This document shows positions 181 to 64,000 of a DNA stretch of 64,000 bases, in pieces. The notes beneath the pieces are model-generated. The model was given only the letters and a program-made list of their open reading frames with translations. It searched no databases and was not told the DNA's origin. The stretch's first letter is position 1. Each line of letters begins with the position of its first letter. Made by a program: the position numbers and the translations under genes. This DNA is from Candidatus Omnitrophica bacterium UBA6215 (GTDB taxonomy: Bacteria > Omnitrophota > Gorgyraeia > Pluralincolimonadales > Pluralincolimonadaceae), in assembly GCA_002421665.1 (NCBI GenBank), contig DISH01000006.1, forward strand, positions 217,784-281,783. The letters run 5' to 3'.

Positions 181-1278
181 TCAGCGCTCGGTGAACGGAG
201 TCCCCCGTTCGGTGCGTTTTATGCCTTTGAGGGCCAATTCGAGGACCGGAATGGAATCGCAGAATCTCTTGGCCTCTTCCGCGGATATCCTGCCGTCAAG
301 ACAGAGTTTCGCAAGGTACTGGTCAAAGGTCTGCATACCGTAGATAGATCCGTCTTCGATGAACTGTATAAGCTCGTTGGTCTTGCCTTCTCTTATAAGC
401 GCGGATATAGTCGGCGTATTCAGCATTATCTCGCAGGCCGGGACCCTTCCCTTGCCTTCCTTGACCGGGATCAGTCTCTGCGATATTATCCCTTTAAGTA
501 AAAGGGAAAGCTGCATCCTGATCTCCTCGTGCTGGTGTGGAGGGTAAAAATTCACTATCCTCTCGACCGTTTGGATGGCATTTATAGAATGTATCGTGCT
601 GACAACAAGCTGCCCGGTCTCGGCCGCGTTCATCGCCGCTGCCATGGTCTGCATATCGCGGATATTCCCTATAAATATTACATCGGGGCTCTGGTACATG
701 ACATGCTTCAAAGCCTCGATATAATCGGGCGTATCGAGGCCTATCTCCCTCTGTTCAATGAGCGACTTCTTGTCGTTGAACACGAACTCTATGGGGTCTT
801 CTATCGTCACAACGTGAGAGGGAAGGTTTTGGTTGATATATTCGATGATGCTGGCTATTGTTGTCGATTTTCCGCTGCCGGTAGCACCGGTTATCAATAT
901 GAGCCCGCGCTTTTCAAGCGAAAGCTTACCCAGAACTTTTGCGGGCAGGTTTAATTCGTTAAATGTCTCTATCTTTCCTTTTATATATCTGAATACCGCC
1001 CCGGGTACGCCGTTTTGGTGGAAGATACTCCCGCGAAACCTGCCGAGTCCTTCTATGTTCATGCCGAAATCTATCTCTCGTTCGGTATCAAAAGCCTTCT
1101 TCTGTGCAGGGTTCAGCATCTCGGCGATCATGCCGGAAATGTCTTTCTCCGTGATCCTTTCCTGGTTCGCCGGTATGAGCGAACCGTCCGTCCGGAAATT
1201 AACAGGGCTTCCGACCTTGAAAAATATATCGGAAGCCCCCGATTCCACCATAGACCTGAAAATAGCTTTTATATCCAT
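181..1278 (-). CDS. pilT: Type IV pilus retraction ATPase PilT/PilU family (twitching motility protein)
   Basis: 365-aa ORF. Walker A GATGSGKST, with PilT-type motifs (IEDPIEF, HLVVSTIHS) and a length typical of PilT rather than PilB. Followed by a hairpin terminator. Confidence 0.9.
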   Translation of the reverse strand: MDIKAIFRSMVESGASDIFFKVGSPVNFRTDGSLIPANQERITEKDISGMIAEMLNPAQKKAFDTEREIDFGMNIEGLGRFRGSIFHQNGVPGAVFRYIKGKIETFNELNLPAKVLGKLSLEKRGLILITGATGSGKSTTIASIIEYINQNLPSHVVTIEDPIEFVFNDKKSLIEQREIGLDTPDYIEALKHVMYQSPDVIFIGNIRDMQTMAAAMNAAETGQLVVSTIHSINAIQTVERIVNFYPPHQHEEIRMQLSLLLKGIISQRLIPVKEGKGRVPACEIMLNTPTISALIREGKTNELIQFIEDGSIYGMQTFDQYLAKLCLDGRISAEEAKRFCDSIPVLELALKGIKRTERGTPFTER

Positions 1279-49702: not shown

Positions 49703-51745
49703 CTATTTGTGGTGTTCGTGGCCGTGGTTTGCCCCGGCTTCCTCGGTTGCCTTTTTGGCGCCGGCAACGATCCCCTGGGTGATCTTAGCGGGGACTTCCT
49801 CATAATGGTCGAATTTCATGGAGTAAGAACCGCGGCCGCCTGTCATCGAACGCAACTCCGTGGCATATTTGAACATCTCGGCCAAAGGTATCAGGGCTTT
49901 GACGTACTCCTGCTTGCCCCGGCCCTCTATTCCCATTATCCTGCCGCGGCGCGAATTAATGTCACCCGTTATCTGCCCGAGGTAATCGTTAGGGACTATG
50001 ATCTCCACGCTCATGACAGGCTCAAGGAGAACCGGGCTCGCCTGCTCTTGTCCGTTCTTGAAGGCCATAGACCCGGCTATCTGGAAAGCCATGTCGGAAG
50101 AATCGACTTCGTGGAACGAGCCGTCATATACGGTTACCCTTACGTCGACCACCGGGTACCCGGCAAGGAAACCTTTTGTCATGGCATCCTTAACCCCTTT
50201 CTCAACAGAAGGGATATACTGCCTGGGGATGGCGCCTCCAACGACTTTATCGACGAATTCAAAGGCTTTTCCATGGGGCAGCGGTTCAAGCTCCAGCCAG
50301 CAATCGCCGTATTGGCCTCGGCCGCCGGACTGCCTCTTGAACTTACCCTGTACCTTGACGGTCTTCTTTATGGTCTCTTTATACGGGACTTTCGGGACGC
50401 CTACTTCCACTTCCACCCCAAAACGTTTCTTCATCCTGTCAAGCATGACATCCAGATGCAGGTCCCCCATGCCGGAAATTACCAATTCATGGGTCTGTTC
50501 GTCACGACTTATACGGAAGGTCGGGTCTTCTGAAACAAGCCGCGTAAGCGCAGCCATGATCTTTTCTTCATCCTGGCGTGTCTTGGGCTTTACCGAGTTC
50601 GATATGCACGGTTCCGGGAAACCGGTAGGAGTAAAAACAACCGGATTTTTATCGTCACAAACGGTGTCGTTATTATGGGTATCCTTAAGTTTGGCTACGG
50701 CGGCAATATCCCCTGCGGCGGCTTTTTGCACAGGTATCTGTTCCTTACCCTGAAGGATATATATCTGTCCTATCCTCTCCTTCAAGTCCCTTGAAGAATT
50801 ATAGAAACCCGAGTTGGACTCGACTGCCCCGGAATATACCCTGAAAAGCGTAAGATGGCCTACGTATGGATCGAAGATATCCTTGAATATAAAAGCTGAA
50901 AAGGGCCCGTCTTCGACGGGGCTTCTCGAGACGGCTTCTTTTGTCTTAGGGTTGACCCCTTCGACCGCTTGCCTATCCGCAGGAGAAGGCAGGAGGTCGA
51001 CTATGCCGTCCAATAGCTCCTGGACGCCAATGTTCTGCACCGCGGACCCGCAAAAAACCGGTACTATTTTTCCCGATATGCAGGCGGCTTTAAGGGCTTT
51101 CGTGATCTCGTCAGGGGACAACTCCTTCCCTTCAAGATATTTTTCCGTGAGCGAATCATCGGTCTCCACAACAGCGTCAAGGAGGTCTTCTTTAAGCTTC
51201 CCTCCTTTTGCCAAAACGTTCTCGACCGATTTAAAGGAAAGCTGTTCCCCCACCGGGCAGTTCAATGCCACGCACTGCCGCCCGAAGCGCTCACGTATCG
51301 CCTCCAGAGTATTTTCAAAACTGGCGTTCTCCTTATCCAGTTTGTTCAGGAATATGATGCGGGGGATCGCGCTATCCTCCAGTAACCCCCATACGCGTTC
51401 CGTACCCACTTCTATCCCGTGAACAGTCTCAACGATGAGAACGGCCGCGTCCGCGGCGCGCATCGGAGCTATGACATCTCCTACAAAATCGGCATAACCG
51501 GGCGTGTCCAGGATATGTACACGCGTATTCTTCCATATAAGATGCAGGAACTTTGAGCTAATGGATATCTTCCGCTCTATCTCATCGGAGTTGTAATCGG
51601 AATGGGTATTGCCCTCGGATATCTTACCGAGGCGTGTCGTCATCTTGGAATCGAACAAAAGCGCTTCAATCAATGATGTCTTCCCCGAACCGGAGTGCGA
51701 AACGAAGATCACGTTGCGGATGTCTTTTGAGGGATATCTTTCCAT
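49703..51745 (-). CDS. Elongation factor G paralogue (EF-G2-like translational GTPase)
   Basis: 680 aa with the five-domain EF-G architecture. G motifs are DTPGYADF and NKLD. G1 is divergent: SHSGSGKTS instead of AHIDAGKTT. SD AAGGAAGGA. Confidence 0.85.
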   Translation of the reverse strand: MERYPSKDIRNVIFVSHSGSGKTSLIEALLFDSKMTTRLGKISEGNTHSDYNSDEIERKISISSKFLHLIWKNTRVHILDTPGYADFVGDVIAPMRAADAAVLIVETVHGIEVGTERVWGLLEDSAIPRIIFLNKLDKENASFENTLEAIRERFGRQCVALNCPVGEQLSFKSVENVLAKGGKLKEDLLDAVVETDDSLTEKYLEGKELSPDEITKALKAACISGKIVPVFCGSAVQNIGVQELLDGIVDLLPSPADRQAVEGVNPKTKEAVSRSPVEDGPFSAFIFKDIFDPYVGHLTLFRVYSGAVESNSGFYNSSRDLKERIGQIYILQGKEQIPVQKAAAGDIAAVAKLKDTHNNDTVCDDKNPVVFTPTGFPEPCISNSVKPKTRQDEEKIMAALTRLVSEDPTFRISRDEQTHELVISGMGDLHLDVMLDRMKKRFGVEVEVGVPKVPYKETIKKTVKVQGKFKRQSGGRGQYGDCWLELEPLPHGKAFEFVDKVVGGAIPRQYIPSVEKGVKDAMTKGFLAGYPVVDVRVTVYDGSFHEVDSSDMAFQIAGSMAFKNGQEQASPVLLEPVMSVEIIVPNDYLGQITGDINSRRGRIMGIEGRGKQEYVKALIPLAEMFKYATELRSMTGGRGSYSMKFDHYEEVPAKITQGIVAGAKKATEEAGANHGHEHHK

Positions 51746-51817: not shown

Positions 51818-51846
51818 AATATAACTCGCCCGTGAAATGTTGTCAA
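51818..51846 (-). promoter_or_regulatory. Putative strong sigma70 promoter for the EF-G paralogue
   Basis: On the minus strand, a perfect TTGACA, a 17-nt spacer and TATATT, about 70 nt upstream of the ATG. It lies in the 113-nt gap downstream of the pilin-like array. Confidence 0.55.
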
Positions 51847-51858
51847 GCAAAAATCAGG

Positions 51859-54800
51859 TCAAAACTCCTTGAAATACAAGATATCCGTCTTCGGAAGATA
51901 TGTAACGGTAATGTCCTCCAAGACGGGGGTCTCAAGCGCCGGGGTCCCGGTCGTCGAGATCGCCGACTGCTGCAGGACAAAACCGTCCCAGTAATTATCC
52001 GTAGGTATCCACTTACCCCAAACACCTATCCCGGCGCGCACTTTCGTCGCGGATGTCGGGGCCGCAACCCAGCCCATATCCATAAATATATAATCACTAC
52101 CAACGTTAGTGCCCGATGAGACCGGCGTCGAACCTGAGTAAACAATGTTGCCTGCACTATCATAAAATTTCAGTTCAAGATCTCCGTGCCAACTGCCGCA
52201 GTCTGCGGACCATGAATACCATCCGCTGAATCTGTATTTGGCGCCTTTAACGCACGGCACCTCCTGATATATTTCGGTATCCAATTTACTGCTGTTGCTG
52301 CCGGAGCGCCTGCCGTGTCGCAGGCTATATGCTCCTTCATGCGGCTTGAGAGTGCTTGCAGTAGCGCCATTTGCCAATGCAACCGTCCAGTTGCTCAAAC
52401 TCCCGCTTTCGAAGCCGCCGTTCACTAAGACATTATCAACCTCTTGGACAGTTTCAGTCCCCGTAGCAATTAATTCCGCTTTAACCGCCAATTTGTCACT
52501 AACCGTATTTATAGCCCGCCCCGCGGAGGGATCGGTCCACTCCCCTGTCCATGAGGTCTTTGCACCTGTCGTATCCACGGATACCGTAATTCCGCCGCCT
52601 TCATCGGCTATTTCGTCCGGCACGGCTTGCGTCCATGTTATGGTCCCAAGCAGGACATTTTTCCCGAAGTCGATCTCCGGGGACTCATAACTACCGTTCA
52701 TGACATAAATACCGTTGTTCATATCCGCGACGATCTCGTAATCAGACCGTTGGGTATCCCACATCCAGACCGAACCTATCACCGAGTTGGAAAACTCGTA
52801 GCTGCCTTCACTTACATTCCACTTGCTGTATTCGTTTCCGCACATGAAATCATAATCTATATCGGATTTATCCTCGTAATCGGGATGATAATAATAAACG
52901 TTTATATCGTTAGATCCGTCCGAACCGCAATTATAAAAGAGCTTCAGTTCCCCGTTCAAATATACGTACATAGGGCATACGGAGGAATTGTACGTCCCCT
53001 CCGGGTTTCCTTCTATCGGAGAAGGATTAGTCCACGTAACCGCCAGATGATTCCACTTACCCGCATCCCAATGGCCCCAACTCCTGCTGCCATAAGGCCA
53101 TCCAAAGCCGGTATCCCCCCATTTGAACAACCCTTCGGAAAACCCCCATTTTGAAGTCGACGGGCTCCATCGCCCTCCTCCCCACTTAGCCTCAGCGTAA
53201 GTCCCCCCTCCGTCGGACCACATGAATAACGCCATAAATGGCATTCCGGCGGGATCGTCATAGCCGTCTATGGCGCTTCCGCTCGTAAGTCTTAGCATCT
53301 TCCTGTCCACATCGCTGTCCCCATACATCATGGAATCGATACTGTTCCATTGGGTCTTGAACCATATCTCAAGCGTCCCCTTACTGGCGGAAACATTCCC
53401 GGGGCATTTATATGCGGCGTTTACCTTATCGAACATGTCGGAAAGCATTCCGTCGGGCATAAGGTCCCCGCGGGTCAGGTAATCCGCAATACTTCCAATA
53501 TTTGGCTTTGTCCCGCTCCCGCTCGCCTTGACATCGGAAAGGGATTTATTGCCGCCCGCACTCTGGGCATCCAACGACTTCCTGTAATTAGCGTTGAACC
53601 AGGAGGTGCAGCTCGTCCCATCCGGGCCGCCAACGGTCTTCTTGGCGAGCATTATCTGTCCGTCGTATGCCGCCGCGGACGGACGCAGGTCCGTATCTTC
53701 CACCTCGACCGGCTCGGGATAAGTCGTGATATCCGTCTTGGAAGAGCCCGTCGCCTCAAACTGCTGCTGGCTCGTTAACCTGTACTGGTCAAATATCTTG
53801 GCAATACATATCACGTTCTTCTTCGCAACGGTTATCGGAGGTCTGCTTACCGTGCCCACAGAGGTTATCTCGTAGTAACCGCCGGAATTAAAACTGAACT
53901 CCGTAGTGTTGACACTAAAACCTCTGTCGTCCGAGTCCGCCGCACCGTTCTTGTTCCAATCCATGAGATATTTCCCGATATACCCCATCTTTGACGCCCA
54001 GCCGTAATTACGTATCCATGAAAACCCGGTATTCGGATTCGCGTTAGCCATAACCAAATCGGCGTCCCTGGAGCCTATCGAACTGCATCCTGCTATTGAC
54101 TCATAAAACTGCGGCCATCCTGAATAAGGCCTATGGTCTATTATATACTGGGCCAAAACATTCGCTTCATCAGCCGTTATCTCAAGAGTACCGGTCCCGG
54201 AACATGCATCGCATGCAACGGGCCCGATCAATGATGTCCCGGCCAGTGAACCGTCTCCCCCGCATTTCGGGCAGGCGTGTATCGCTTTTATCCCCCTGAG
54301 GACGGCCCTAAGGACTTCTTTTGAAGCGGTATTCACGTTGATCGGAGCCCTCGGCTGCAACGCATAAGGCGTAACCAAATCTGTAGGGTTTACCACGGAA
54401 GTATCGATAAAACCGTAGATGGTAAGGTAATCGGCGACCCCGGCGTACTTTTCCTCGATCTCGGCTTTTGTGGAACCGCTTATATATAACTTTATCTCTT
54501 CTTTCGCGGAATAAGGCGCATGCGAAGCTATGTTATCGCAATCGGCATCGGTAAGCAGCGCGGGACTTGAGGTAGCGCTCAAGTTCTTTAATATCTGGGC
54601 AAGGTTTGGATTGCCGTCATTAAGGTTTATCCGGCTGGCGCAATCTACCGCGGTAACGCTATATGAACCGGCAAGGCCCCTGTCGAAGGTAAACGTTCCG
54701 TCATACGATACTTCGGACGTATCAACGGCATCCGCAGTCGCCCCGTTGTCCCCCGTCCTCAATTCGGCTATCGCTTTCGCTATACCGGCATCCGCCATCA

Positions 54801-54942
54801 TCGACGCCTTTTTCGCGTAATAATAATTAAACGCCGATTTGAGACCTAATATAGAATTTATGGTAAAACTTACGCCAATAAAGGACATAAAGGTCAACGC
54901 GCCCAAGGCTATAAGTATAGCGACGCCTTTTCTTTTCCGCAT
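51859..54942 (-). CDS. Giant (1027 aa) PilX/GspK-like minor-pseudopilin protein with DnaJ-type zinc knuckle, LamG/ConA-like and CBM4/9-like modules (paralogue 1)
   Basis: N-terminus MRKRKGVAILIALGALTFMSF...AKAIAEL resembles PilX_N/GspK. GspK-like NLN (SYSVTAVDCASRINLND) and NVNTAS (INVNTASKEVLRAVL) motifs are present. Zinc knuckle CPKCGGDG...CDACSGTG. LamG-like GKWNHLAVTW...YVYLNGEL. CBM4/9-like VNGGFESGSLSNWT...YRFSGW. The C-terminus PVLEDITVTYLPKTDILYFKEF is shared with the paralogues. Confidence 0.75.
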   Translation of the reverse strand: MRKRKGVAILIALGALTFMSFIGVSFTINSILGLKSAFNYYYAKKASMMADAGIAKAIAELRTGDNGATADAVDTSEVSYDGTFTFDRGLAGSYSVTAVDCASRINLNDGNPNLAQILKNLSATSSPALLTDADCDNIASHAPYSAKEEIKLYISGSTKAEIEEKYAGVADYLTIYGFIDTSVVNPTDLVTPYALQPRAPINVNTASKEVLRAVLRGIKAIHACPKCGGDGSLAGTSLIGPVACDACSGTGTLEITADEANVLAQYIIDHRPYSGWPQFYESIAGCSSIGSRDADLVMANANPNTGFSWIRNYGWASKMGYIGKYLMDWNKNGAADSDDRGFSVNTTEFSFNSGGYYEITSVGTVSRPPITVAKKNVICIAKIFDQYRLTSQQQFEATGSSKTDITTYPEPVEVEDTDLRPSAAAYDGQIMLAKKTVGGPDGTSCTSWFNANYRKSLDAQSAGGNKSLSDVKASGSGTKPNIGSIADYLTRGDLMPDGMLSDMFDKVNAAYKCPGNVSASKGTLEIWFKTQWNSIDSMMYGDSDVDRKMLRLTSGSAIDGYDDPAGMPFMALFMWSDGGGTYAEAKWGGGRWSPSTSKWGFSEGLFKWGDTGFGWPYGSRSWGHWDAGKWNHLAVTWTNPSPIEGNPEGTYNSSVCPMYVYLNGELKLFYNCGSDGSNDINVYYYHPDYEDKSDIDYDFMCGNEYSKWNVSEGSYEFSNSVIGSVWMWDTQRSDYEIVADMNNGIYVMNGSYESPEIDFGKNVLLGTITWTQAVPDEIADEGGGITVSVDTTGAKTSWTGEWTDPSAGRAINTVSDKLAVKAELIATGTETVQEVDNVLVNGGFESGSLSNWTVALANGATASTLKPHEGAYSLRHGRRSGSNSSKLDTEIYQEVPCVKGAKYRFSGWYSWSADCGSWHGDLELKFYDSAGNIVYSGSTPVSSGTNVGSDYIFMDMGWVAAPTSATKVRAGIGVWGKWIPTDNYWDGFVLQQSAISTTGTPALETPVLEDITVTYLPKTDILYFKEF

Positions 54943-56010
54943 CTAATAACCTGTCCCTGTTGTTATCGAAGCTTCTTTTCTGATATAACTCGTCAATTCC
55001 TCAAATCCGTCCTCGTCGAGAAGCTTTTTCATTACCTCAGGATTTATCCTCGTATTCGGGTCGTTCTTCACCTTATTATAGACGGATGGATTTTTAAACT
55101 CAAGGTCGCAGTATTGCTGTAATTTTAAAAGTGAGTTAGCGGCAACTGTCACTGCATCTTCCGCACCCGGATGGAGAACATTTCTGGCATCGCTCTTCTT
55201 CTGCAACCCCCTTAAATAAAGCGCCCATGAGTTTGCCCATTTATTCCACTCTTTCGCGTTGAATTTCCTCTTCGAAGACTCATACATCCTGCATAGTTCC
55301 GAACGCGACGCCTCAAGCTTGGAGATCGAGGAACAAACCCTGCCCTTAAACTCCGCCTCCGTGCAGAGTATCTCCTTCATCCCGCCAGCATAAAGCAGGC
55401 AGCGCGACTCTGCCGTTCTTGCCTTGGTGCCTGAGGCAAAATTGGTCAACAACAGTTTTTTGATATCCTCTGTTTGTCTCTCCGGGGTAAAGATCGCCGT
55501 GACCGTATACACGGAAGGAAGCAGCCTTCTTTTTGAAAATTTGAAATCCATGAAGAACTTGTTTCCGAATACGCTTGTCCTGCCCGAAGCCATGACCACT
55601 CCGCGTCTTGCTATTAGAAGTTCTATAGAGGCGCCGTCGGGAAAAACGGCATCACCTTCAACGTCAACGATCACGGTATCTCCCTGACGGTCATAAAAAG
55701 CCCTTACCGACAGATCATAGGGCATGGCCTTGTCTTTATCTTCCTGGGGGTTAACCGGGGAGGGGGCCGATTCGGTCTTGGAGAAAAAATCTTCCGGCAG
55801 GGGCTTCTTTTCTATGGATCCTACATCACTCAAGCTGAATTTTACCTTACCTGCCTTCATCCTGAAGATCAGGCAGTTGCTATCCTCTTCCGTGATCTCG
55901 CCTTCAAACACTTTGCCGTTCTTAAGCCTGATCTCGTCCGCGAACGAACCCTGCAGGACAAAAAAAAGACTGGCGCAGATAACAATTATCCGGCCGGCCT
56001 TTGATAGCAT
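54943..56010 (-). CDS. Secreted hypothetical protein, paralogue family member 1 (355 aa)
   Basis: Sec signal peptide (cleavage near SFA/DE). N-terminal IRLKNGKVFEGEITEE beta-hairpin motif, a beta-sandwich-like middle and a W-rich helical C-terminus EWNKWANSWALYLRGL. Paralogous to the 343-aa and 403-aa genes. No gap from the upstream pilin-like gene. Confidence 0.7.
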   Translation of the reverse strand: MLSKAGRIIVICASLFFVLQGSFADEIRLKNGKVFEGEITEEDSNCLIFRMKAGKVKFSLSDVGSIEKKPLPEDFFSKTESAPSPVNPQEDKDKAMPYDLSVRAFYDRQGDTVIVDVEGDAVFPDGASIELLIARRGVVMASGRTSVFGNKFFMDFKFSKRRLLPSVYTVTAIFTPERQTEDIKKLLLTNFASGTKARTAESRCLLYAGGMKEILCTEAEFKGRVCSSISKLEASRSELCRMYESSKRKFNAKEWNKWANSWALYLRGLQKKSDARNVLHPGAEDAVTVAANSLLKLQQYCDLEFKNPSVYNKVKNDPNTRINPEVMKKLLDEDGFEELTSYIRKEASITTGTGY

Positions 56011-56013
56011 GTA

Positions 56014-59000
56014 TCAAAACTCTCTGGTGTAGAGCACCTGTGTCTTCGGCAGGTACGTAAAAGTCACGTCCTCGATAACAGGCGTATCAGTAAGAGGGAC
56101 AAGCGTCGTCGCTCCCTGCTCGATGAGCTTAAGGTCGTCAAAACTGGCGGGAATATACGCCCCGGAAGCCCAGCTGCATAGAGATATAGTGCAAAGGGTC
56201 GCGTCAGCGGGAGCCGTTACCCAGCTGCCGTTGGTAGGTATGCGCGTGTAAAGCCACGCGTCGCGAGTCCCCATGATAGATACTTCACCGCTGTTATAAC
56301 CGCCCGTCCCGTTGAACCACATCGTATAATAACAATTAATTGTTCCATACCCGCTCGGAAGGTAGGAATATCCTTCGAACTTGTATGCCTTTCCTCCGGT
56401 TATCGGCACGTCTATAGATACCCTGGCACTGCCGAAATTACCTGCGGACCAGGTCCCGCCGTGGACCGGACGGGCTTTAGTGCTAAGGAAAGTCCCCCAA
56501 CTCGGCGAGGCGCCCCAGCCTGAAGGAAGCGGGGCTTCGCTGCCGCCCAAGCCGGGATCATGCGTTTCAAAAGTCGGATCGGTGCAATCTTGCATGACAT
56601 CCGCGTCGGGCTGCGCAGCCGTACCCTTGGTCGAATTGAATACGCTTCTGAAGCGTATGGAACTGCTCCTTACGCGGTTATTGGAATTATTGACTATCGC
56701 CTCTCCTGATGATGAGCCGGTAGACTCCCAATCCCCGTAATAGGTCCCGGATATCGCCGGGTCAACAGCCATAGTTATCGTCTCTTCCGTACTCGGAGTT
56801 ATGGCGGTCCAGCTTGCCGTAGCCCACGTAACCGGGGTCCCGGTATCCGGAGAAGGCAGCGTTAATGTCGGAGATACATACGTCCCGGTCTTCCGGAACA
56901 GGCCGTTGCCGTATTCGGTCAGTATCTGGGCATTCGAAAGCTGCTGGTCCCATATCCTTACCGACGCCACAACCCCGTTCAACTGGCTGCGCTGGAAATG
57001 TGAAACCGTGCCGCTGCCCGCCCACCACTCGTTCCCAAGCATGAGGTATTGGGCGGAAGTGCTATCAAGATATTCCAAGTGGTGGAAATTCTGGTCCGTA
57101 CTCCTCTGTTTCCCGTCAAAATAGACTTTAAGGTCCTTCGGATAAATGCCCGGCCATGTAGACGTACTGTTAGCCGGATTACATTTGCCGTCATTAGCCG
57201 GTTCTTTCCAGCTGATCACATACTGGTGCCATTTACCGGAATTCCACGTACCCAAGGCCTCGGACCCTACATAGTTCCTGCAAAATTCTATGGCGTATTC
57301 GTTGCTTCCTTCTCCCTTGGAAGGATAATATTGCCAACTGGTACCGTTCCAGTACCCGTATCCCTGGGCGCCTATGGAACAGCCTTTCTGTGTCCCGCTG
57401 AAATTCTGCGAATAAAAAACATACGTGGAGAACGGCCATGTCTTGGTTCCGCTGCCGGTTATCTCGTCTTTGCTCATCAGTCGGTATATCTTGCGGTCCT
57501 TACAATCATCGTTATAAAGCATCGTATCGTTGCTGTTCCACATCGACTTGAACCATATCTCCATAGTACCGGCGCTGTAAGTGATATTATTGTTAGCCAG
57601 GTAGTCCGGGCAGACCACGTCATATGTATCGATAAGCATGCCGTCGGGCATCAATTCACCCCTTGAGCCCGCGGAAGCCACGCTGCCGATATTGGGCTTG
57701 GTCGCCAAAGTTCCGGAACCCGGGTTCGGCGGGTTTTGCAAAGCCGAGCTCCCCCCCGCGGCATTGGCATTCAACGAGGTGGTATAAGTAGCCCTGAAAA
57801 ATTTTCCGGAATTAGGCGTAGTACGGCTGACCCTGTCCATCATTATTTGCCCGTCATACGCCGCAGCTGTCACGCCTACCCCGGCAGGTTCCGGGTAAGT
57901 AGTCGTATTGGTTTTTACGTTCCCCGCCGAATCGAACTGCTGCTGATTGGCGGCTTTAACTATACCGAAAAGCCTGGCTGTCTCAGATATACCTCGCTGG
58001 GCGAGCAACACACCCGCAACCGTCCTGTAAGTACCGGTGGACCTTATCTCGTAATAGCCGCCCGAGTTAAAACTGAATTCCGTCGTGCTCTTCCTGAGCC
58101 CTTTATCGGTCGCCTCAACGGTCCCGTTCTTGTCGATATCTATCATATACTTACCCACATAACCCAGTCGCAATGCCCACGCATCATTACGGGCCCACGA
58201 AAAACCCGTATTGGGGTTAGCGTTAGCCATCACCACTTCCTGGTCGGACGAATATGTCCCGTTATTAAAGAACGCCTTTATCGAAGAATAGAAAGACTCC
58301 CAGCTTATATAGGGCCTGTGCGCCACTATGTAATTGGCCAGGTCCTGGGCTTCGGTCGAGTTTATTATCAGGTTACCCGTAATATTTGAAGGAGAGCCCC
58401 CTCCGTCGCAATACGGACAATCCAGGTGGGTACCTAACACGTCAAAATAATAACCGTCCCCTCCGCATTTCGGGCATGAATGGTCGGCCTCTATATTCAT
58501 CAGCAGGGCTCGAAGGACCTCAGCCGAAGCCGTATTGACGTTCACCGGGGAACGCGGCTGCAGCGCGTATGGAGTAGTTATATCCTGCGGATCGATCGTC
58601 GTAGGATCGACATAGCCGTATATTGTTATATAATCGGCTATCTTCGCGTACTTCGCTTCCGATATTCCCGCTTTTACCTTGATCTCTTCTTTCGTGGTAT
58701 AAGGCCTGTTGGCGGCTATGTTGTCGCACTCGGCGGTTGTCAGGCCCGCTGAGACAACGGTATTGAGGTTTTGCAATATCTGGGAAAGGCGCGCGTTGCT
58801 GTTGCTGTCGCTGAGGTTTATGCGGCTGGCACAGTCGATAACCGTAACGCTGTAACTGCCGCGGTTGCCAAGAAGGGAATTATCGGAAAACCCGCTTGAA
58901 AAAGCCGTTTCCGCAAGACTGTCTATGGCGTCATTAAAGGCGCCCTGATTGCCGTACCTGAGTTCGGCTATGGCCTTAGCTACACCGGCTTCCGCAAGCA

Positions 59001-59139
59001 TCCTGGCTTTGACATTAGCATTAAAATTATGCGCCGCTTTCTGCTCCATTATAACCGAAAGCACCATGGTCGAGCCTATAAGCGAGAGCATGGCCAGAAC
59101 ACCAAGAGCGAAGACTATAGCGAGTCCTTTTCTCATCAT
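56014..59139 (-). CDS. Giant (1041 aa) PilX/GspK-like minor-pseudopilin protein with zinc knuckle, LamG-like and CBM-like modules (paralogue 2)
   Basis: The N-terminal ~430 aa are co-linear with paralogue 1 (AKAIAELRYG, SYSVTVIDCASRINLSD, VNVNTASAEVLRALL, CPKCGGDG...CPYCDGGG, ANANPNTGFSW, TEFSFNSGGYYEI). LamG-like GKWHQYVISW...LKVYFDGKQ. C-terminus PVIEDVTFTYLPKTQVLYTREF. Confidence 0.75.
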   Translation of the reverse strand: MMRKGLAIVFALGVLAMLSLIGSTMVLSVIMEQKAAHNFNANVKARMLAEAGVAKAIAELRYGNQGAFNDAIDSLAETAFSSGFSDNSLLGNRGSYSVTVIDCASRINLSDSNSNARLSQILQNLNTVVSAGLTTAECDNIAANRPYTTKEEIKVKAGISEAKYAKIADYITIYGYVDPTTIDPQDITTPYALQPRSPVNVNTASAEVLRALLMNIEADHSCPKCGGDGYYFDVLGTHLDCPYCDGGGSPSNITGNLIINSTEAQDLANYIVAHRPYISWESFYSSIKAFFNNGTYSSDQEVVMANANPNTGFSWARNDAWALRLGYVGKYMIDIDKNGTVEATDKGLRKSTTEFSFNSGGYYEIRSTGTYRTVAGVLLAQRGISETARLFGIVKAANQQQFDSAGNVKTNTTTYPEPAGVGVTAAAYDGQIMMDRVSRTTPNSGKFFRATYTTSLNANAAGGSSALQNPPNPGSGTLATKPNIGSVASAGSRGELMPDGMLIDTYDVVCPDYLANNNITYSAGTMEIWFKSMWNSNDTMLYNDDCKDRKIYRLMSKDEITGSGTKTWPFSTYVFYSQNFSGTQKGCSIGAQGYGYWNGTSWQYYPSKGEGSNEYAIEFCRNYVGSEALGTWNSGKWHQYVISWKEPANDGKCNPANSTSTWPGIYPKDLKVYFDGKQRSTDQNFHHLEYLDSTSAQYLMLGNEWWAGSGTVSHFQRSQLNGVVASVRIWDQQLSNAQILTEYGNGLFRKTGTYVSPTLTLPSPDTGTPVTWATASWTAITPSTEETITMAVDPAISGTYYGDWESTGSSSGEAIVNNSNNRVRSSSIRFRSVFNSTKGTAAQPDADVMQDCTDPTFETHDPGLGGSEAPLPSGWGASPSWGTFLSTKARPVHGGTWSAGNFGSARVSIDVPITGGKAYKFEGYSYLPSGYGTINCYYTMWFNGTGGYNSGEVSIMGTRDAWLYTRIPTNGSWVTAPADATLCTISLCSWASGAYIPASFDDLKLIEQGATTLVPLTDTPVIEDVTFTYLPKTQVLYTREF

Positions 59140-60350
59140 CAGTTTATCTCCCTGGGGGCGGATGACAGCTCGGAATTCATGATGCCCACCAGTTTCTGCA
59201 ACTCCATCTCCAAAGCGTAACGTTTCTTCTCCATATCGGCTTTCTTTGCGGCACCTGCCTCGGAAGACCGGGTCTTAAGGCTATCGGTCATTATAACATA
59301 TATATCGGAAAGATACTTTACCGCAATAGGCAGGCCCTTCTCGCACTCCGGATACAGGGCCGCCGCGTCTTTCCTTCCGTTCTTTAGGCTGTTACTCAAC
59401 TTTTTAAGGCGGAAACGCCACCTATCGGACCATTCATCCCACGTCACGGCGTTAAAATCGTTAAGGGACAAAGCATAGACATCTTTGAGTTCTTTATATA
59501 ATTCTTCTACGGAAGACACCTCGAGCGCAGTGTCGCTCTTCTCGTTCTTTTCGTTCTTCGCGGCTTCGGAAGCCCTTCCTATAACTACGTCGGCACTCGA
59601 AGCCGTGTAAGGTATCTTACCGTTTAAAGCTGCCTTCTTGAACTCCGGCCTCTGCATGTCAGGGATGAACACTGCTTCCACTTTATATTTGCCCGCGGCC
59701 AATTCCGTCCCGAAAGGTCCGAACGATATACTGAAGGAGTTACCCATAACGACCGACTCCCCCATGGTGATCACATTATCTATGCGTTTCAAGAATATCT
59801 TCAGGACGGCCCAATCAGGCAGCCCCGTCTTGCCGTCTACATGCAGTATTATCTTGTTCCCGTATTGTTCGATGGAATTCGATATCTCTATCCCGTAAGG
59901 GGATATCTCTGCCTCTTCTTCCCCGGCATCAAGAGGAATAGAGGCCTCCACGCCTTTTAATTGTCCGCCGGGACCTCCTGTTTTCATAGAACTGATCACG
60001 CTATCAACCTGTTTCTCTGGAAAGAACAGTACCTGCACTTCATATTTCCCGGACAGCGGTTTATCTAAAGGCCCGAGCGTAACATAATATTTGCCGGGAG
60101 AGACTTTTATGTCTTTAAAAGCGACCGGACTGCCGTTCTTCTTAACAAAAACCGATACTACGGCATCCCTCGGAAGAGTAGTCTCCCCTGAAACACTTAC
60201 TTTCGGGCCTTCCTTGGTCCTCAGGTAAAGCGCCTTATCAATGGTTATCTCGAATACAGTGTCACCGTCCGCCGCGGGGGCCAAAAAACAAAAAAAGCCG
60301 GCAACAAGTATAATTATATTAACGGCTTTTGGAAGTAACTCTCTTTTCAC
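59139..60350 (-). CDS. Secreted hypothetical protein, paralogue family member 2 (403 aa, two beta-sandwich-like repeats)
   Basis: GTG start with SD GGGAGGG at N7. Signal peptide (APAA/DG). Two repeats of a ...GKYxVxxxFxPxxQ module. W-rich C-terminal motif TWDEWSDRWRFRLKKL. 1-nt overlap with the downstream giant gene. Confidence 0.7.
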   Translation of the reverse strand: MKRELLPKAVNIIILVAGFFCFLAPAADGDTVFEITIDKALYLRTKEGPKVSVSGETTLPRDAVVSVFVKKNGSPVAFKDIKVSPGKYYVTLGPLDKPLSGKYEVQVLFFPEKQVDSVISSMKTGGPGGQLKGVEASIPLDAGEEEAEISPYGIEISNSIEQYGNKIILHVDGKTGLPDWAVLKIFLKRIDNVITMGESVVMGNSFSISFGPFGTELAAGKYKVEAVFIPDMQRPEFKKAALNGKIPYTASSADVVIGRASEAAKNEKNEKSDTALEVSSVEELYKELKDVYALSLNDFNAVTWDEWSDRWRFRLKKLSNSLKNGRKDAAALYPECEKGLPIAVKYLSDIYVIMTDSLKTRSSEAGAAKKADMEKKRYALEMELQKLVGIMNSELSSAPREIN

Positions 60351-60406
60351 GGTTTATCCCTCCCACCCGGCTATTTGACCACGCTGTTCAATTAAAATAT
60401 ATCATA

Positions 60407-61438
60407 TTATTGCCTGTTCTTCAAGTCGGCGGCTACAGCGGAAACATCCTGCTTTGTCTCTTCCAGCGCCTGTTCAAACGACCTCTTAAGAAGCGCGACG
60501 TCCTGCACAGGGAACCCCGTTTTCGCAGGTTTTGAATCCAGGGAGTTCAGCTTGATCGTATATGCCCTTAAAAGCAACGGCAGCTGGTTAAAACAGAACC
60601 GGATCCTCCTCTGGGACAGGGCATGGGTAGACACAACATAGGCCTTGGCTTCTTCTTCAAATTTCTGCCTGGCGGCACTGACCTTAGAGAACCACCTCCC
60701 CGACCAGTCTTCCCATTTCTGCGCGCTATACGAGGACCTGCTCTTCTCATATTCCGCATTAAGCTCTTTGTAAAGGGCTTCCGCCCCTGAAGCCGTCCGG
60801 TTGAGGTATTCCCTGGTCTTAGTCTCGTCGGTTTCCGCGCGTTCCCGGCTGCCTATCATCAATTCGTAAGGCTTCGAATATAACCTGTTATTGGTGCCGG
60901 TCATCGCCTCCGCCTGAACGGTATACACTCCTGATATCATGCGATTTTCGAACGGACCGAATACCACGTAGAACTCCCCTCTCTTTACGCGGGATTCTTT
61001 CATGTTTATTACCCCTCCCGCCTGCATGAAATATACCCTCAAAGGTGTGTTGTTGGCAAGTTCGCTCGTTCCGCTGACGTATATCTTGCCTCTCTTGTAT
61101 TCCGCCTTCACTTTTATGCTCGCGGAAAATACCTGCGGGGCTTCTTCCGTTTTCGGTTCCGGCTCGGGTTCGGTATTTATCTCGGGGAGCGCCGCGGTCG
61201 AATATCCCTCGGCCGGCTCCCTGGCTTCGAAAGAGCTTACATCCTTCCTGGCTATCCTCATCTTGCCTGAGCCCAATTTGATCTCGATATAATCTATTGT
61301 CTTATCGGTTATCTTCCCCTCTATAGTCCTCCCGTTCCGCAGGAAGATTATATCGGCACGTGACGAAGCCGCCATAAATAACCATATTAGCGAGATCGAT
61401 ATTATCTTAGCCGGCCTTATCATTGTCCTTCTCTCCAA
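60407..61438 (-). CDS. Secreted hypothetical protein, paralogue family member 3 (343 aa)
   Basis: Signal peptide (SSRA/D). IIFLRNGRTIEGKITDK N-terminal motif as in the 355-aa paralogue, and a W-rich KWEDWSGRWFSKV motif. The start may be the internal MIRPAK (top about 61423), which overlaps the upstream stop in ATGA fashion. Confidence 0.7.
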   Translation of the reverse strand: MERRTMIRPAKIISISLIWLFMAASSRADIIFLRNGRTIEGKITDKTIDYIEIKLGSGKMRIARKDVSSFEAREPAEGYSTAALPEINTEPEPEPKTEEAPQVFSASIKVKAEYKRGKIYVSGTSELANNTPLRVYFMQAGGVINMKESRVKRGEFYVVFGPFENRMISGVYTVQAEAMTGTNNRLYSKPYELMIGSRERAETDETKTREYLNRTASGAEALYKELNAEYEKSRSSYSAQKWEDWSGRWFSKVSAARQKFEEEAKAYVVSTHALSQRRIRFCFNQLPLLLRAYTIKLNSLDSKPAKTGFPVQDVALLKRSFEQALEETKQDVSAVAADLKNRQ

Positions 61439-64000
61439 TACTCAACCTCAACCTTAGGCAGGAAAGTTACGGTTATATCCTCAAGAACGGGAGTCCTGGA
61501 ACTCGCTGAATACTGGTCCCTGCTTATACTCGACGATGAAAGTACCGCCTTATACTGAATAAAGGGATCCGTCCCTGAAAGCTGCGCCCCATTGGTAAGC
61601 GATGACCCCCACGATGTATCCCCGGTAGGCAGACCTGAAGCGGTAGACGCTATCCTGGCATACATAGTGACGTTTGTGCTGGACATGGGTTGGGTCTGGG
61701 GGGACCACGAAACGGTTCCCCATATTACCGATGAGCCCGCGCAGAACGGCGTCGACACTAAATAACCGTTCTCGGGTATTCCCCGGATATCATCCCAATG
61801 CGTCTGCAGGACTGTTACCGCGCCGGCCTTATCAAAATCCGCCGGCCCTATGGTACACTGTCCCCTGTTGAAATCCGACCAGTCCCAACCGAGGTATTGG
61901 TTATTGGCTATATATTTGAAGATCTGGGTATTAGCCCCAAGCGTGCCCGGCGACCAGGTAGACAGGGCTCCTGAAGTACCGTTTACGAAGGACCTGTACG
62001 ATACGCTCGTCCCGGAATTCGCGCCGGCCATCCCGATGGTCTTCTCCGGCAGGTAATTGAACTGAGTATAGAACATCTTTGTATACATCCTTATCTCGTT
62101 GGTATCGCCGAAACAATAAAGAGGTTTGGGCTCAGTGGTAACGTTGGTATTGCCATGGCTGTCGTTGAGCAGGCATTTGTAGCCTCTTGCCGTCATCGTT
62201 TGCCCGCCGTATCCGGTAGGCCATGTATCATCCTGCACGCCCTTGGCGAATATCCAGCATCCGCAGAACGGCGCTTCAGGCTGCCAGTAAGTATAGCTTC
62301 CAGGAGAAGGTATCGTCTCAAGTTCCCAACTTGCCGGCCGCGTCGGGTTGTATATGTAAGTCGGGTTTCCGCTCGCGTCATAAACCGGATACACCTCCGG
62401 CTCCCCGTAACGGCCCTCAAGGCTCCCGTCAAAGACACCGTTACCGTTCTGGTCATAATAATAGACATACCTGCTGCTGCCTGAATACAGGCGCGTCGTG
62501 GGAGGCGGGAAAGACAGCGGATATACCGTTCCGTTGCCGCGCCATGCTATCCTGGTAGAAGGCGCGGGTTCTTTTACGTATGCCCTTACAAAAACGGAAT
62601 TCGTGTTAGGTCTGAAATAGTTCCTGTTGACCTCGAAATGTTTGCTTTCAAAAGTGTTGACCTCTATATATACCTCCCTGTCGCCGTCAGTATCATTATC
62701 CTGGAAATCCTGGTAACTAACGTTAAATTCGCTAGTCCCCCACCACGACCTGTTCGCGACATAACCTTTCATCATGACGGCCGAGAACGCCGGATCCTCG
62801 TCAAAATTATCCCAATACCCGAGCTTAAGAGAATCCGGAGTTGTCGCGTAACCCGGGACCTCCCATTGCATCTTGCCCGCCCCGGAATTCCAACTGTCTT
62901 CTACAGTAGGACACTCGTCAAGCCAATTAACATTGAAGACCTCCCCGTCCTGGAAGTTGCCGTATCTGCCGAACCAGGCGGCATAAAACTCTTCTTTGGT
63001 GGTCTGCGTCCACGTACCGAATACCTTGACGACCGCGGAAAGCTGTTTTACGGAAGCCGTCTGCGTGCCATTAAGCTCCCTGGCGGTAACGCCTATCGTA
63101 TAGATCCCCGCGTGGTTATATCCGCTCGTAAGTTCTGTCCTCGGGTCATACCCGAGCCTCTCAGCAGGTATAGGCGCGGCCGAAGCGAAGGAGGCCGATT
63201 TCCACTTCAACTGCACCGAATTATGGAACAATTGGTCATAGTATTCCAGGCGTATCCTGTGCCAACCGGGATTCGCGAATGTATAAGTCCCCGACGCGGT
63301 CCTGTCCCACGGATAATTTTCCGAACTTTGCTTATCCGTCCAACGGGAACAGACTAAAGTATCATTTATATAGAACCTTGCACCGTCATCGCAGGCTATC
63401 CAGAAGGTTATCGGAGTATTGACCTCGGAATCCGTTATCTCTATATAACCGGTCCAGATGACCCCGAATGTGGTAAGCCCGTAATCGCCTACCGTGGCGA
63501 TGGTCCCTCCTCCGGCAAATTCAGCGTCATGCGTCTCCGCCCAAGTATCGCCTCCGTCACCGTCGGTCCCGGGCATTACCGCGTCATCAGGAGTCTGGTA
63601 TATCTGTCCGATCTCCACTATCTTTTCGCAAAAACTTGACTTGTCAATAGCTACGTTAGGAGTTGAACCTGTCAGGTTGCTGTAATACTTGCCCAGGAGG
63701 CCGCCCCTGATTATAGGCTTATTCACCGTCAATTTGTTCTTATTAGCTTCGAAAACCGCCTGGGTAATACCGGTTGCCATCCTGATCTCGGAAATGGCGT
63801 CAAAAGGCGCGTTCTTGCATTGCGCGGACCCCTCGATATTACCGGAAACGCCTCCTACTGCGGTATTGACCGCGTCGGAGTCCCTGTAGTCTATTATGTT
63901 GGCGATCTGCTGGTTAGAAAGGAAGGTTTGGAGTATAGTTATCTGGCTTGAGTCGGTTTCATCAAAGGTATTTATATTTACCTTATCCTCCTCTGAGGAT
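61420..64000 (-). CDS. Giant PilX/GspK-like minor-pseudopilin protein with PA14 domain (paralogue 3; 5'-partial, N-terminus beyond window end)
   Basis: The reading frame stays open from the track's M at 63780 to the window edge. In that upstream part it encodes a GspK-like ANIIDYRDSD motif. It contains a PA14-like segment (GTYTFANPGWHRIRLEYYDQLFHNSVQLKWKS) and ends with PVLEDITVTFLPKVEVEYWREGQ, like paralogues 1 and 2. Confidence 0.7.
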   Translation of the reverse strand, partial: SSEEDKVNINTFDETDSSQITILQTFLSNQQIANIIDYRDSDAVNTAVGGVSGNIEGSAQCKNAPFDAISEIRMATGITQAVFEANKNKLTVNKPIIRGGLLGKYYSNLTGSTPNVAIDKSSFCEKIVEIGQIYQTPDDAVMPGTDGDGGDTWAETHDAEFAGGGTIATVGDYGLTTFGVIWTGYIEITDSEVNTPITFWIACDDGARFYINDTLVCSRWTDKQSSENYPWDRTASGTYTFANPGWHRIRLEYYDQLFHNSVQLKWKSASFASAAPIPAERLGYDPRTELTSGYNHAGIYTIGVTARELNGTQTASVKQLSAVVKVFGTWTQTTKEEFYAAWFGRYGNFQDGEVFNVNWLDECPTVEDSWNSGAGKMQWEVPGYATTPDSLKLGYWDNFDEDPAFSAVMMKGYVANRSWWGTSEFNVSYQDFQDNDTDGDREVYIEVNTFESKHFEVNRNYFRPNTNSVFVRAYVKEPAPSTRIAWRGNGTVYPLSFPPPTTRLYSGSSRYVYYYDQNGNGVFDGSLEGRYGEPEVYPVYDASGNPTYIYNPTRPASWELETIPSPGSYTYWQPEAPFCGCWIFAKGVQDDTWPTGYGGQTMTARGYKCLLNDSHGNTNVTTEPKPLYCFGDTNEIRMYTKMFYTQFNYLPEKTIGMAGANSGTSVSYRSFVNGTSGALSTWSPGTLGANTQIFKYIANNQYLGWDWSDFNRGQCTIGPADFDKAGAVTVLQTHWDDIRGIPENGYLVSTPFCAGSSVIWGTVSWSPQTQPMSSTNVTMYARIASTASGLPTGDTSWGSSLTNGAQLSGTDPFIQYKAVLSSSSISRDQYSASSRTPVLEDITVTFLPKVEVEYWREGQ

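Follow-up and report, generated by a model that had tools for sequence, protein, structure and literature searches.

Three strategies are known by which the tip of a type IV pilus is given a binding function: in diderms a separate PilY1 protein is plugged into PilK, in monoderms canonical pilins are made modular at the C-terminus, and in type IVb pili (T4bP) trimeric pilins act as cargo adapters. That tip pilins can be modular and bear lectins is well established, with more than 1,200 modular pilins surveyed and GspK itself counted among them (PMC9934059; PMC8179133). Genes for type IVa pili (T4aP) are reported to be common in all classes of Omnitrophota (PMC10066038), and planctomycetes have dextran-binding pili-like fibers (PMC5394234). 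Here we describe a 64,000-nucleotide (nt) stretch of DNA from Candidatus Omnitrophica bacterium UBA6215 (contig DISH01000006.1; hereafter the window), in which six minus-strand open reading frames (ORFs) packed into positions 51859-64000 encode three large proteins with a GspK-type minor pilin carrier and lectin modules (K1-K3) and three secreted partners (acc1-acc3). We consider it likely that K1-K3 are alternative apex subunits, in the GspK/PilX position, of a type IV pilus-like filament, that they share an H-I-J core and that each carries a different glycan-binding head. The role of K as a pilus-tip adhesin, which we infer from homology and genomic context, had also been proposed in a preliminary description of this DNA, whose interpretation is largely supported by the analysis below; none of the three outcomes that it named as counting against it was observed.

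The K proteins, introduced there as three paralogues of about 1000 amino acids (aa) on the minus strand, the third running off the window, are indeed related: K2 and K3 are 43% identical, and K1 and K3 are 25% identical, with common blocks at the N-terminus and in the last ~25 residues. The protein cut by the window edge is K1, whose frame has no in-frame upstream stop in the window and stays open to base 63999; the complete gene lies on a public contig (L001, 7110-10004) as an ORF of 964 aa from GTG, with gene calls of 949-963 aa. The exact acc1 and K2 proteins are present on 17-19 public metagenome contigs of up to 352 kb. For acc1 the exact protein (19 contigs) is the version from the ATG start used in Table 1; a longer reading from TTG (60407-61438, 343 aa) had no exact match among the public contigs. 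The junctions are a 4-nt overlap (K1/acc1), a 56-nt gap (acc1/acc2), a 1-nt overlap (acc2/K2), a 3-nt gap (K2/acc3) and 0 nt (acc3/K3), and this tight spacing from K1 to K3 therefore fits a single translationally coupled operon. Directly upstream of K1, beyond the window (L001, 5455-6951), lie three prepilin-type genes encoding proteins of 151, 123 and 237 aa with the motifs G/FTLIE, G/FTLIE and G/LTLVE (here and below a slash separates leader and mature part); all three match Pfam N_methyl, the first also matches the GspH domain and the third has a faint T2SSJ match in a precomputed gene-call table. K1 is thus a GspK/PilX-type gene placed right after gspH/gspI/gspJ-type genes, and the unit reads gspH-gspI-gspJ-K1-acc1-acc2-K2-acc3-K3. 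With gspH/I/J upstream of K1 and a gene for an elongation factor G (EF-G) paralogue downstream of K3, we therefore take the transcription unit to run from gspH to K3; a scan of the array for promoters and terminators gave counts not above those in shuffled sequence.

Several lines of evidence assign the N-terminal region of the K proteins to GspK. The motifs quoted in the preliminary description are all present, namely AKAIAELR, SxINLN (as SRINLN), NVNTAS (within PINVNTAS) and, in K1, IIDYRDSD, together with KWNHLAVTW...YVYLNGEL and VNGGFESGSLSNWT in the lectin region. The NCBIfam model T2SS_GspK (NF037980) matches K3 (E 2.9e-8) and K2 (E 6.2e-9) over model positions 2-230 of 307, and Pfam T2SSK matches K2 (E 4.8e-4) and K3 (E 7e-3) at the PINVNTAS motif, with further Pfam matches of K2 to HHH_3 (5.8e-4) and PilX_N (0.064). 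Among 52 full-length K homologues, 23 match T2SSK at E<=1e-3 (best 2.1e-10) and 11 match PilX_N, and the KN profile matches K1 orthologues at E 1e-33 to 9e-36. In an AlphaFold2 model of K3 built on the family alignment (mean predicted local distance difference test score (pLDDT) 86.5, predicted template modeling score 0.77), two strands, a helical domain (~114-320) and strands at 340-408 come after a 59-residue N-terminal helix (5-63), an arrangement that is the pilin fold with an inserted alpha (helix-hairpin-helix) domain seen in solved GspK structures. A fold search returned GspK proteins of type II secretion systems (T2SS) as the closest solved structures, and the whole GspK fold is kept, including the surfaces used for contact with I and J. 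The proposed GspK/PilX relationship of this region is thereby upheld: the matches of K2 and K3 themselves lie below threshold yet agree with it, those of the homologues are stronger, and the fold of the K3 model decides the matter. An hhalign comparison with E. coli GspK, run with the full family and again with the lectin region removed, aligned the N-terminal helix alone. One feature of the helical domain sets two of the proteins apart: a four-cysteine, zinc-ribbon-like insert (CxxCGGDG...CxxCxGxG) is found in K2, K3 and the family consensus and is absent from K1. In K3 it gives weak Pfam matches to DnaJ_CXXCXGXG and Anti-TRAP, and three family members match DnaJ_CXXCXGXG.

The N-termini also follow GspK. 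The hydrophobic segment noted earlier is there, although it is not simply "uncleaved-looking" as it had been called, having the GspK-type layout of a class III leader, in which a short basic leader ending in Gly is followed by a hydrophobic helix without Glu5. The leaders of K1 (MMINKPGRDRRG/IALLMAIG, ending ...RDRRG/IALLMAIG), K2 (MMRKG/LAIVFALG) and K3 (MRKRKG/VAILIALG) show the same pattern as that of E. coli GspK (MNNEQRG/VALLIVL). None of K1-K3 matches N_methyl (PF07963), which the upstream H, I and J proteins do match, as is expected for GspK-type subunits. By this sequence pattern the K proteins are putative prepilin peptidase substrates.

Beyond the GspK part the K proteins continue into modules of lectin type. 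K1 has a PA14 domain scoring above the Pfam cutoff, and K2 and K3 have a ConA/LamG-like lectin domain, a type recognized by fold and profile (Laminin_G_3), which in K3 is followed by a beta-jelly-roll module whose fold resembles solved carbohydrate-binding modules (CBMs) of the CBM4/9, CBM16 and CBM61 types. The Laminin_G_3 match of K2 is sub-threshold (2.9e-3), 16 of the 52 homologues match this family, and K2 probably also carries a CBM4/9/16/61-like jelly roll. The PA14, LamG-like and CBM-like modules announced in the preliminary description are thus present, but they are not simply appended to the pilin, for a conserved C-terminal hairpin follows them. K1-K3 all end in TPVL(E)D(I/V)T(V/F)T(Y/F)LPK...Y.RE, and a PVL(D/E)DVTITY motif forms the extreme C-terminus of nearly all complete relatives in the loci examined (673-1400 aa, two phyla), being kept across Omnitrophota and Planctomycetota despite differing middle modules. 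In shorter relatives the hairpin comes right after a small sandwich (consensus WGTIxWTE...IxYRAxF), whereas in K3 the sandwich takes up residues 757-832 and the CBM lies between it and the hairpin. On balance we lean toward a hairpin that supplies the last strands of this small sandwich. We regard as doubtful, and base on analogy, a hairpin that folds back on the pilin domain in the manner of an engineered PilK-PLUG fusion (bioRxiv 10.64898/2026.09.18.752573); by the same analogy K might carry in its hairpin, in cis, a natural counterpart to the plug with which PilY1 stabilizes PilK. The C-terminal module has no match among PDB sequences or in Pfam, and hhalign to E. coli GspK gave no mapping of the hairpin onto the last strands of GspK. 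A role of the motif as an outer-membrane-protein or sorting signal was considered and rejected because the motif is not hydrophobic and K1 ends in REGQ.

The three proteins interleaved with K, correctly described beforehand as paralogous and Sec-secreted, share 22-24% mutual identity. Their family comprises 274 cluster representatives, all unnamed, and the ACC profile recognizes acc2 orthologues in syntenic arrays with E values from 5e-82 to 9e-107. In a model of acc3 (pLDDT 79.8), a signal helix with an AxA-type site (SFA/DE) leads into a small, optional beta-barrel, and a disordered linker then connects to an Ig-like sandwich and a helical bundle. The small N-terminal barrel (I.LKNG....G.I; ~50 residues of mature acc3 and acc1) has sub-threshold Leptospira matches, to the "LA_0442/LA_0875 N-terminal domain" (NF047433; E 5e-9 and 1.5e-8 for acc3 and acc1) and to related Leptospira families, and appears to be a widespread unnamed periplasmic module. 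An acc homologue lies directly beside 32 of 49 Omnitrophota K genes (25 downstream) and beside 12 of 43 other K genes, mostly from Planctomycetota.

A scan of one genome per species yielded 206 K relatives, and 76 loci were examined. Named K homologues come almost all from Candidatus Omnitrophota metagenome-assembled genomes (MAGs), with some records labeled Planctomycetia or Dehalococcoidales. The order K1(PA14)-acc-acc-K2-acc-K3 is kept in at least five species, K3 being 64-91% identical (L014-L017 and L021; also L009/L010), and I or J genes lie upstream of the conserved arrays wherever the retrieved DNA extends far enough. By this gene-for-gene conservation the triplication is old and stable; the array had been called diversifying, and rapid diversification is rejected by synteny and orthology across these species. 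The copy-number comparison that had been suggested also shows two to four further K genes elsewhere in the same genomes (CAZAEH01: L014, L022, L029; CAZYUB01: L017, L018, L023, L034, L037), and the system proved wider than first described, with K+acc pairs occurring singly in glycan-utilization loci and in Planctomycetota. The planctomycetal relatives (960-1240 aa) share the GspK-like N-domain and have Laminin_G_3 in six of eight cases, so that both the K-LamG architecture and the K-acc pairing reach into this phylum. As a side observation, the GenBank MAGs titled "uncultured Planctomycetia bacterium" (L014, L017, L018, L020, L022, L023, L029, L034, L037) have contigs syntenic with Omnitrophota and a K3 up to 91% identical to that of Omnitrophota, and one K homologue is labeled Dehalococcoidales; the taxonomy assigned to these bins does not look reliable.

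Two kinds of genomic setting bear on function. The H-I-J order before K is repeated in L021, L035, L052, L060 and L067, and in some loci K is part of a full pilus cluster. In L046 a single K follows H-I-J in a cluster with two PilB-like ATPases, T2SSF, a T2SSG-type major pilin and PilM, and no PilY1-like gene was found after K; in L052 and L060 K comes after three genes with prepilin motifs, and the clusters there encode long T2SSE-like ATPases and a PilT-like ATPase. This content points to a retractile type IV pilus rather than a classical T2SS. Elsewhere in the same clade, orphan K(+acc) genes are located in polysaccharide-utilization-like loci. In the genome closest to the window (L022) the neighbors encode a PEP-CTERM CBM11/30 protein, a GntR/LacI-type regulator, a glycoside hydrolase (GH) of family GH94, a CBM30 protein and a GH9+CBM30 protein; in L029 they encode two PEP-CTERM mannanase-GBD proteins, a sugar ABC transporter, LacI and a 1385-aa GH2; in L037, a PEP-CTERM CBM11 protein and a GH26+CBM9 protein; and in L011, L012 and the P0036 contig GH94, GH2, GH35, GH9 and sugar transporters lie beside an orphan K. 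No other contextual evidence speaks as strongly for a function directed at carbohydrates. The small PEP-CTERM proteins (CBM11, CBM30 or mannanase-GBD) that flank orphan pairs (L022, 13360-14178; L029, 685-2000; L037, 9253-9897) are an observation in their own right, since tagged glycan binders beside K+acc imply exosortase-type surface anchoring in these Omnitrophota.

Gene order, GspK and lectin folds, conservation and genomic settings are what the analysis shows directly; going beyond them, we propose that each K would be made with a class III leader of GspK type and that its long N-terminal helix would anchor it in the inner membrane. One K, in competition with the other variants, and the shared GspH/I/J-like minor pilins would form a priming complex that ends at the filament tip. 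Each K bears its own predicted glycan-binding modules, several hundred residues per protein (PA14 in K1, ConA/LamG-like in K2 and K3), so that the K at its tip would give each filament a specific lectin head. By extending, binding and being retracted by PilT, the filament would then fasten the cell to a polysaccharide or to a partner cell coated with glycans. The extra K+acc pairs within glycan-utilization loci suggest that the specificity of a tip may fit the substrate of the enzymes encoded beside it. Each K usually has its own secreted acc, and from this almost one-to-one, tightly coupled pairing we suggest that acc would act as a K-specific periplasmic assembly factor or tip partner. A more far-reaching version, which we put forward tentatively, is that K+acc pairs encoded in polysaccharide-utilization loci (PULs) are substrate-specific, exchangeable "fishing" tips and that this extends to the dextran-binding fibers of planctomycetes (PMC5394234): the H-I-J core would be capped by whichever K is expressed, the PUL copies would be co-induced with the enzymes, and the filament would fish for exactly the polysaccharide degraded by the encoding locus. 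If this is true, the presence of the GspK-LamG architecture and K-acc pairing in Planctomycetota makes K a prime candidate for the glycan-binding component of those fibers.

A number of observations weigh against tip adhesins of this kind. The matches of K3 and K2 fall below the curated cutoffs (17.1 and 20.9 bits against 24.2 for T2SSK, PF03934; 33.6 and 35.8 bits against 130 for NF037980), and a family-profile search of PDB sequences was weak, with GspK only at E 0.17, so that a fold search was needed to show the GspK relationship. The flanking DNA, where the preliminary description had hoped to find further pilus genes, supplied the gspH/I/J-like genes; no prepilin peptidase, major pilin, assembly ATPase or secretin adjoins the array, its flanks being the rRNA operon and EF-G, and the lone PilT-like gene is the only pilus machinery gene in the window. 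A head of roughly 100 kDa would have to pass or sit in a secretin. About a third of Omnitrophota K genes are without an adjacent acc, and acc itself is without an informative homologue: no Pfam match was found and no described family fits acc1-3. Finally, the folds are the sole basis on which we infer glycan binding by the K modules. With these points in mind one may ask whether K caps the pseudopilus of a T2SS instead of a surface pilus, its lectin/CBM heads helping to recruit (glyco)protein or carbohydrate-active enzyme cargo or to push it through the secretin and its PUL copies tuning the secretion of glycoside hydrolases. Such a role would suit the T2SS GspK proteins found as closest structures, the helical T2SSK domain, the T2SSG match of the major pilin in a related cluster and the secreted GH9, GH2 and GH26 enzymes beside orphan copies. 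We nevertheless judge it unlikely, because PilM (L046) and PilT-like ATPases (L052, L060) in the K clusters are hallmarks of retractile type IV pili, no GspC/L/M-type Pfam match was found among the ten L046 proteins scanned (five downstream of K), the window has a PilT-type ATPase, T4aP are widely encoded in Omnitrophota (PMC10066038), and lectin modules of tip pilins are known as adhesins (PMC9934059).

Still less probable, and to our minds very unlikely, is that K is never polymerized and that the proteins are periplasmic glycan binders or sensors anchored in the inner membrane by a GspK-like segment, with acc as periplasmic partner. Orphan copies without adjacent H-I-J, beside regulators and ABC transporters, would be explained in this way, as would an array without adjacent assembly machinery, but it would leave without a reason the retention of the whole GspK fold with its I-J contact surfaces, of the Gly at -1 in the leader and of the H-I-J-K order in both the array and the full pilus clusters. 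The third alternative is a variant of the tip-adhesin reading that differs in the ligand, holding that the array binds cell-surface glycans of a host or prey, in line with the epibiotic or predatory lifestyle proposed for Omnitrophota, rather than free polysaccharide. The three-gene array lies in a housekeeping neighborhood outside glycan-utilization loci, K1 carries PA14, a domain frequent in adhesins, and type IV pili have been proposed for host attachment in Omnitrophota (PMC10066038); set against this are the same-genome paralogues in cellulose-, mannan- and galactoside-type utilization loci, the plant-type glycans that are typical ligands of CBM16/61/22-like folds, and an organism without a known host. 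We think a host or prey ligand rather improbable, and its probability is a share of that given to alternative K-capped tips, not an addition to it. Alternative GspK-position subunits with glycan-binding heads thus remain the reading we prefer.

Table 1. Features of the K/acc array and the window PilT-like gene (positions in the window; residues in the protein)
Feature	Position	Strand	Residues	Description
K3	51859..54942	-	1027 aa	GspK-type minor (pseudo)pilin with lectin modules
K3 N-terminal segment	54754..54942	-	1-63	Basic leader MRKRKG and hydrophobic helix (pilin alpha-1) without Glu5
K3 GspK-like pilin domain	53713..54942	-	~1-410	Pilin domain with inserted helix-hairpin-helix domain
K3 four-cysteine ribbon	54178..54288	-	~219-255	Zinc-ribbon-like insert within helical domain
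K3 ConA/LamG-like module	52684..53451	-	~498-753	Beta-sandwich
K3 CBM-like module	51943..52440	-	~835-1000	CBM4/9-, CBM16-, CBM61-like jelly roll
K3 C-terminal beta-hairpin	51862..51930	-	1005-1027	TPVLEDITVTYLPKTDILYFKEF; model pLDDT above 90
acc3	54943..56010	-	355 aa	Sec-type secreted partner, without known family
K2	56014..59139	-	1041 aa	GspK-type minor (pseudo)pilin with LamG-like and C-terminal beta-sandwich modules
acc2	59139..60350	-	403 aa	Paralogue in partner family
acc1	60407..61423	-	338 aa	Partner-family paralogue; from ATG at 61423 (public gene calls)
K1	61420..64000	-	C-terminal ~860 in window	Start lies beyond window edge
K1 PA14 domain	63196..63477	-		Pfam 33.6 bits (33.4 in full-length K1); cutoff 24
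PilT-size T2SSE-family ATPase	181..1278	-	365 aa	Pfam T2SSE E 2e-37; unlinked to array

The surroundings of the array are those of a housekeeping region. A complete rRNA operon (16S-tRNA-tRNA-23S-5S; L001, 157-5331) lies upstream of the gspH-like gene and ends ~120 nt before it, just beyond window base 64000, and the minor-pilin operon is therefore immediately downstream of it on the same strand. Downstream of K3 follow the EF-G-family paralogue (49703-51745, minus strand, 680 aa; spacer 113 nt), then YebC and RuvCAB. A near-consensus sigma-70-like promoter (TTGACA-17-TATATT, 51818-51846) in the K3/EF-G spacer suggests that the EF-G paralogue is a separate transcription unit, in a scan that overall was not above chance. 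The pilT gene reported for the window is present, at the end away from the array, as a PilT-size T2SSE-family ATPase, by sequence a candidate retraction motor. Its closest relatives in other Omnitrophota lie within pilus clusters, and the DNA beyond it is a cell-division (dcw) cluster without pilus genes. Elsewhere in the window, a 3121-aa protein (9392-18757, minus strand) with a 1,3-beta-glucan synthase (FKS-like) domain, a GT2 domain and a GH76-like region is overlapped by a 1282-aa protein with TolC-type OEP repeats (18754-22602, minus strand), and the two may form a giant glucan synthesis/export pair. A dCache-HAMP-GGDEF diguanylate cyclase is encoded at 24199-25776 (minus strand), and a related glycan locus with K (L011) encodes PilZ-domain proteins; a link of cyclic di-GMP to the K/acc system is possible.

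Compared with described systems, K is closest to GspK (enterotoxigenic E. coli, 3CI0; P. aeruginosa XcpX, 5VTM) and PilX/PilK, with which it shares the leader ending in Gly, the helix without Glu5, the gene position after gspH-I-J homologues and the expected apex position in the priming complex. At ~1000 aa it is three times larger than GspK (~330 aa), and unlike GspK it has PA14, LamG and CBM modules, the Cys4 ribbon, a conserved extra C-terminal module, a dedicated secreted partner and three copies per operon with more elsewhere, and it scores below the curated cutoffs. The weak N-terminal match of K2 to Verru_Chthon cassette protein A (TIGR02600; E 9.6e-5) covers only the first ~60 residues at 20 bits against a cutoff of 332; that protein is very large and presumably encoded beside small prepilin-like genes in a phylum of the Planctomycetes-Verrucomicrobia-Chlamydiae group, and a literature search on the cassette found nothing. 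Modular type IV pilins, such as PilC (lectin) and PilB (vWA) of S. sanguinis, likewise join a pilin carrier to ligand-binding modules for display at the tip, and K, with a pilin module and non-pilus modules (PA14, LamG, CBM), agrees with their definition (Raynaud et al., 2021) except that K1-K3 are without the N-terminal IPR012902/N_methyl motif. The published survey was keyed on IPR012902 and therefore probably missed such proteins. Whereas S. sanguinis PilC is a monoderm protein with a short canonical class III pilin module and a C-terminal lectin, the carrier in K is a diderm GspK-type subunit of an H-I-J-K complex. The PilY1/PilC tip adhesin of diderm T4aP also places a large modular ligand-binding head on such a complex, and its C-terminal plug augments PilK, much as K ends in a conserved beta-hairpin that recalls the engineered PilK-PLUG fusion; yet PilY1 is not a pilin but a protein of its own with a beta-propeller, whereas in K head and K subunit form one polypeptide in which no PilY1-type C-terminal propeller was detected. 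The T4bP tip pilins CofB/TcpB and the secreted CofJ/TcpF, compared from published descriptions only, resemble K-acc in combining a large minor pilin with beta-sandwich/lectin-like domains and a co-encoded secreted binder, but CofB is a homotrimer of a different pilus class, and no sequence or fold relationship to acc was found.

We found no paper describing the K/acc arrangement. Its parts yield candidate genes for how Omnitrophota attach to substrates or hosts and, by extension, for polysaccharide binding by planctomycete fibers, and acc is a previously unannotated protein family with a clear genomic partner. The extra copies in polysaccharide-utilization-like loci link pilus-tip specificity with carbohydrate foraging in two poorly understood phyla. 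New relative to the known systems are the GspK-type carrier in place of a separate PilY1, the multiple alternative K genes, the acc family and the C-terminal module. To the plugged PilY1 of diderms, the modular canonical pilins of monoderms and the trimeric adapters of T4bP, the array would add a fourth arrangement, in a diderm, in which the lectin head is part of the GspK/PilK-position subunit itself, a subunit that comes in several alternative copies and usually has a dedicated secreted partner.

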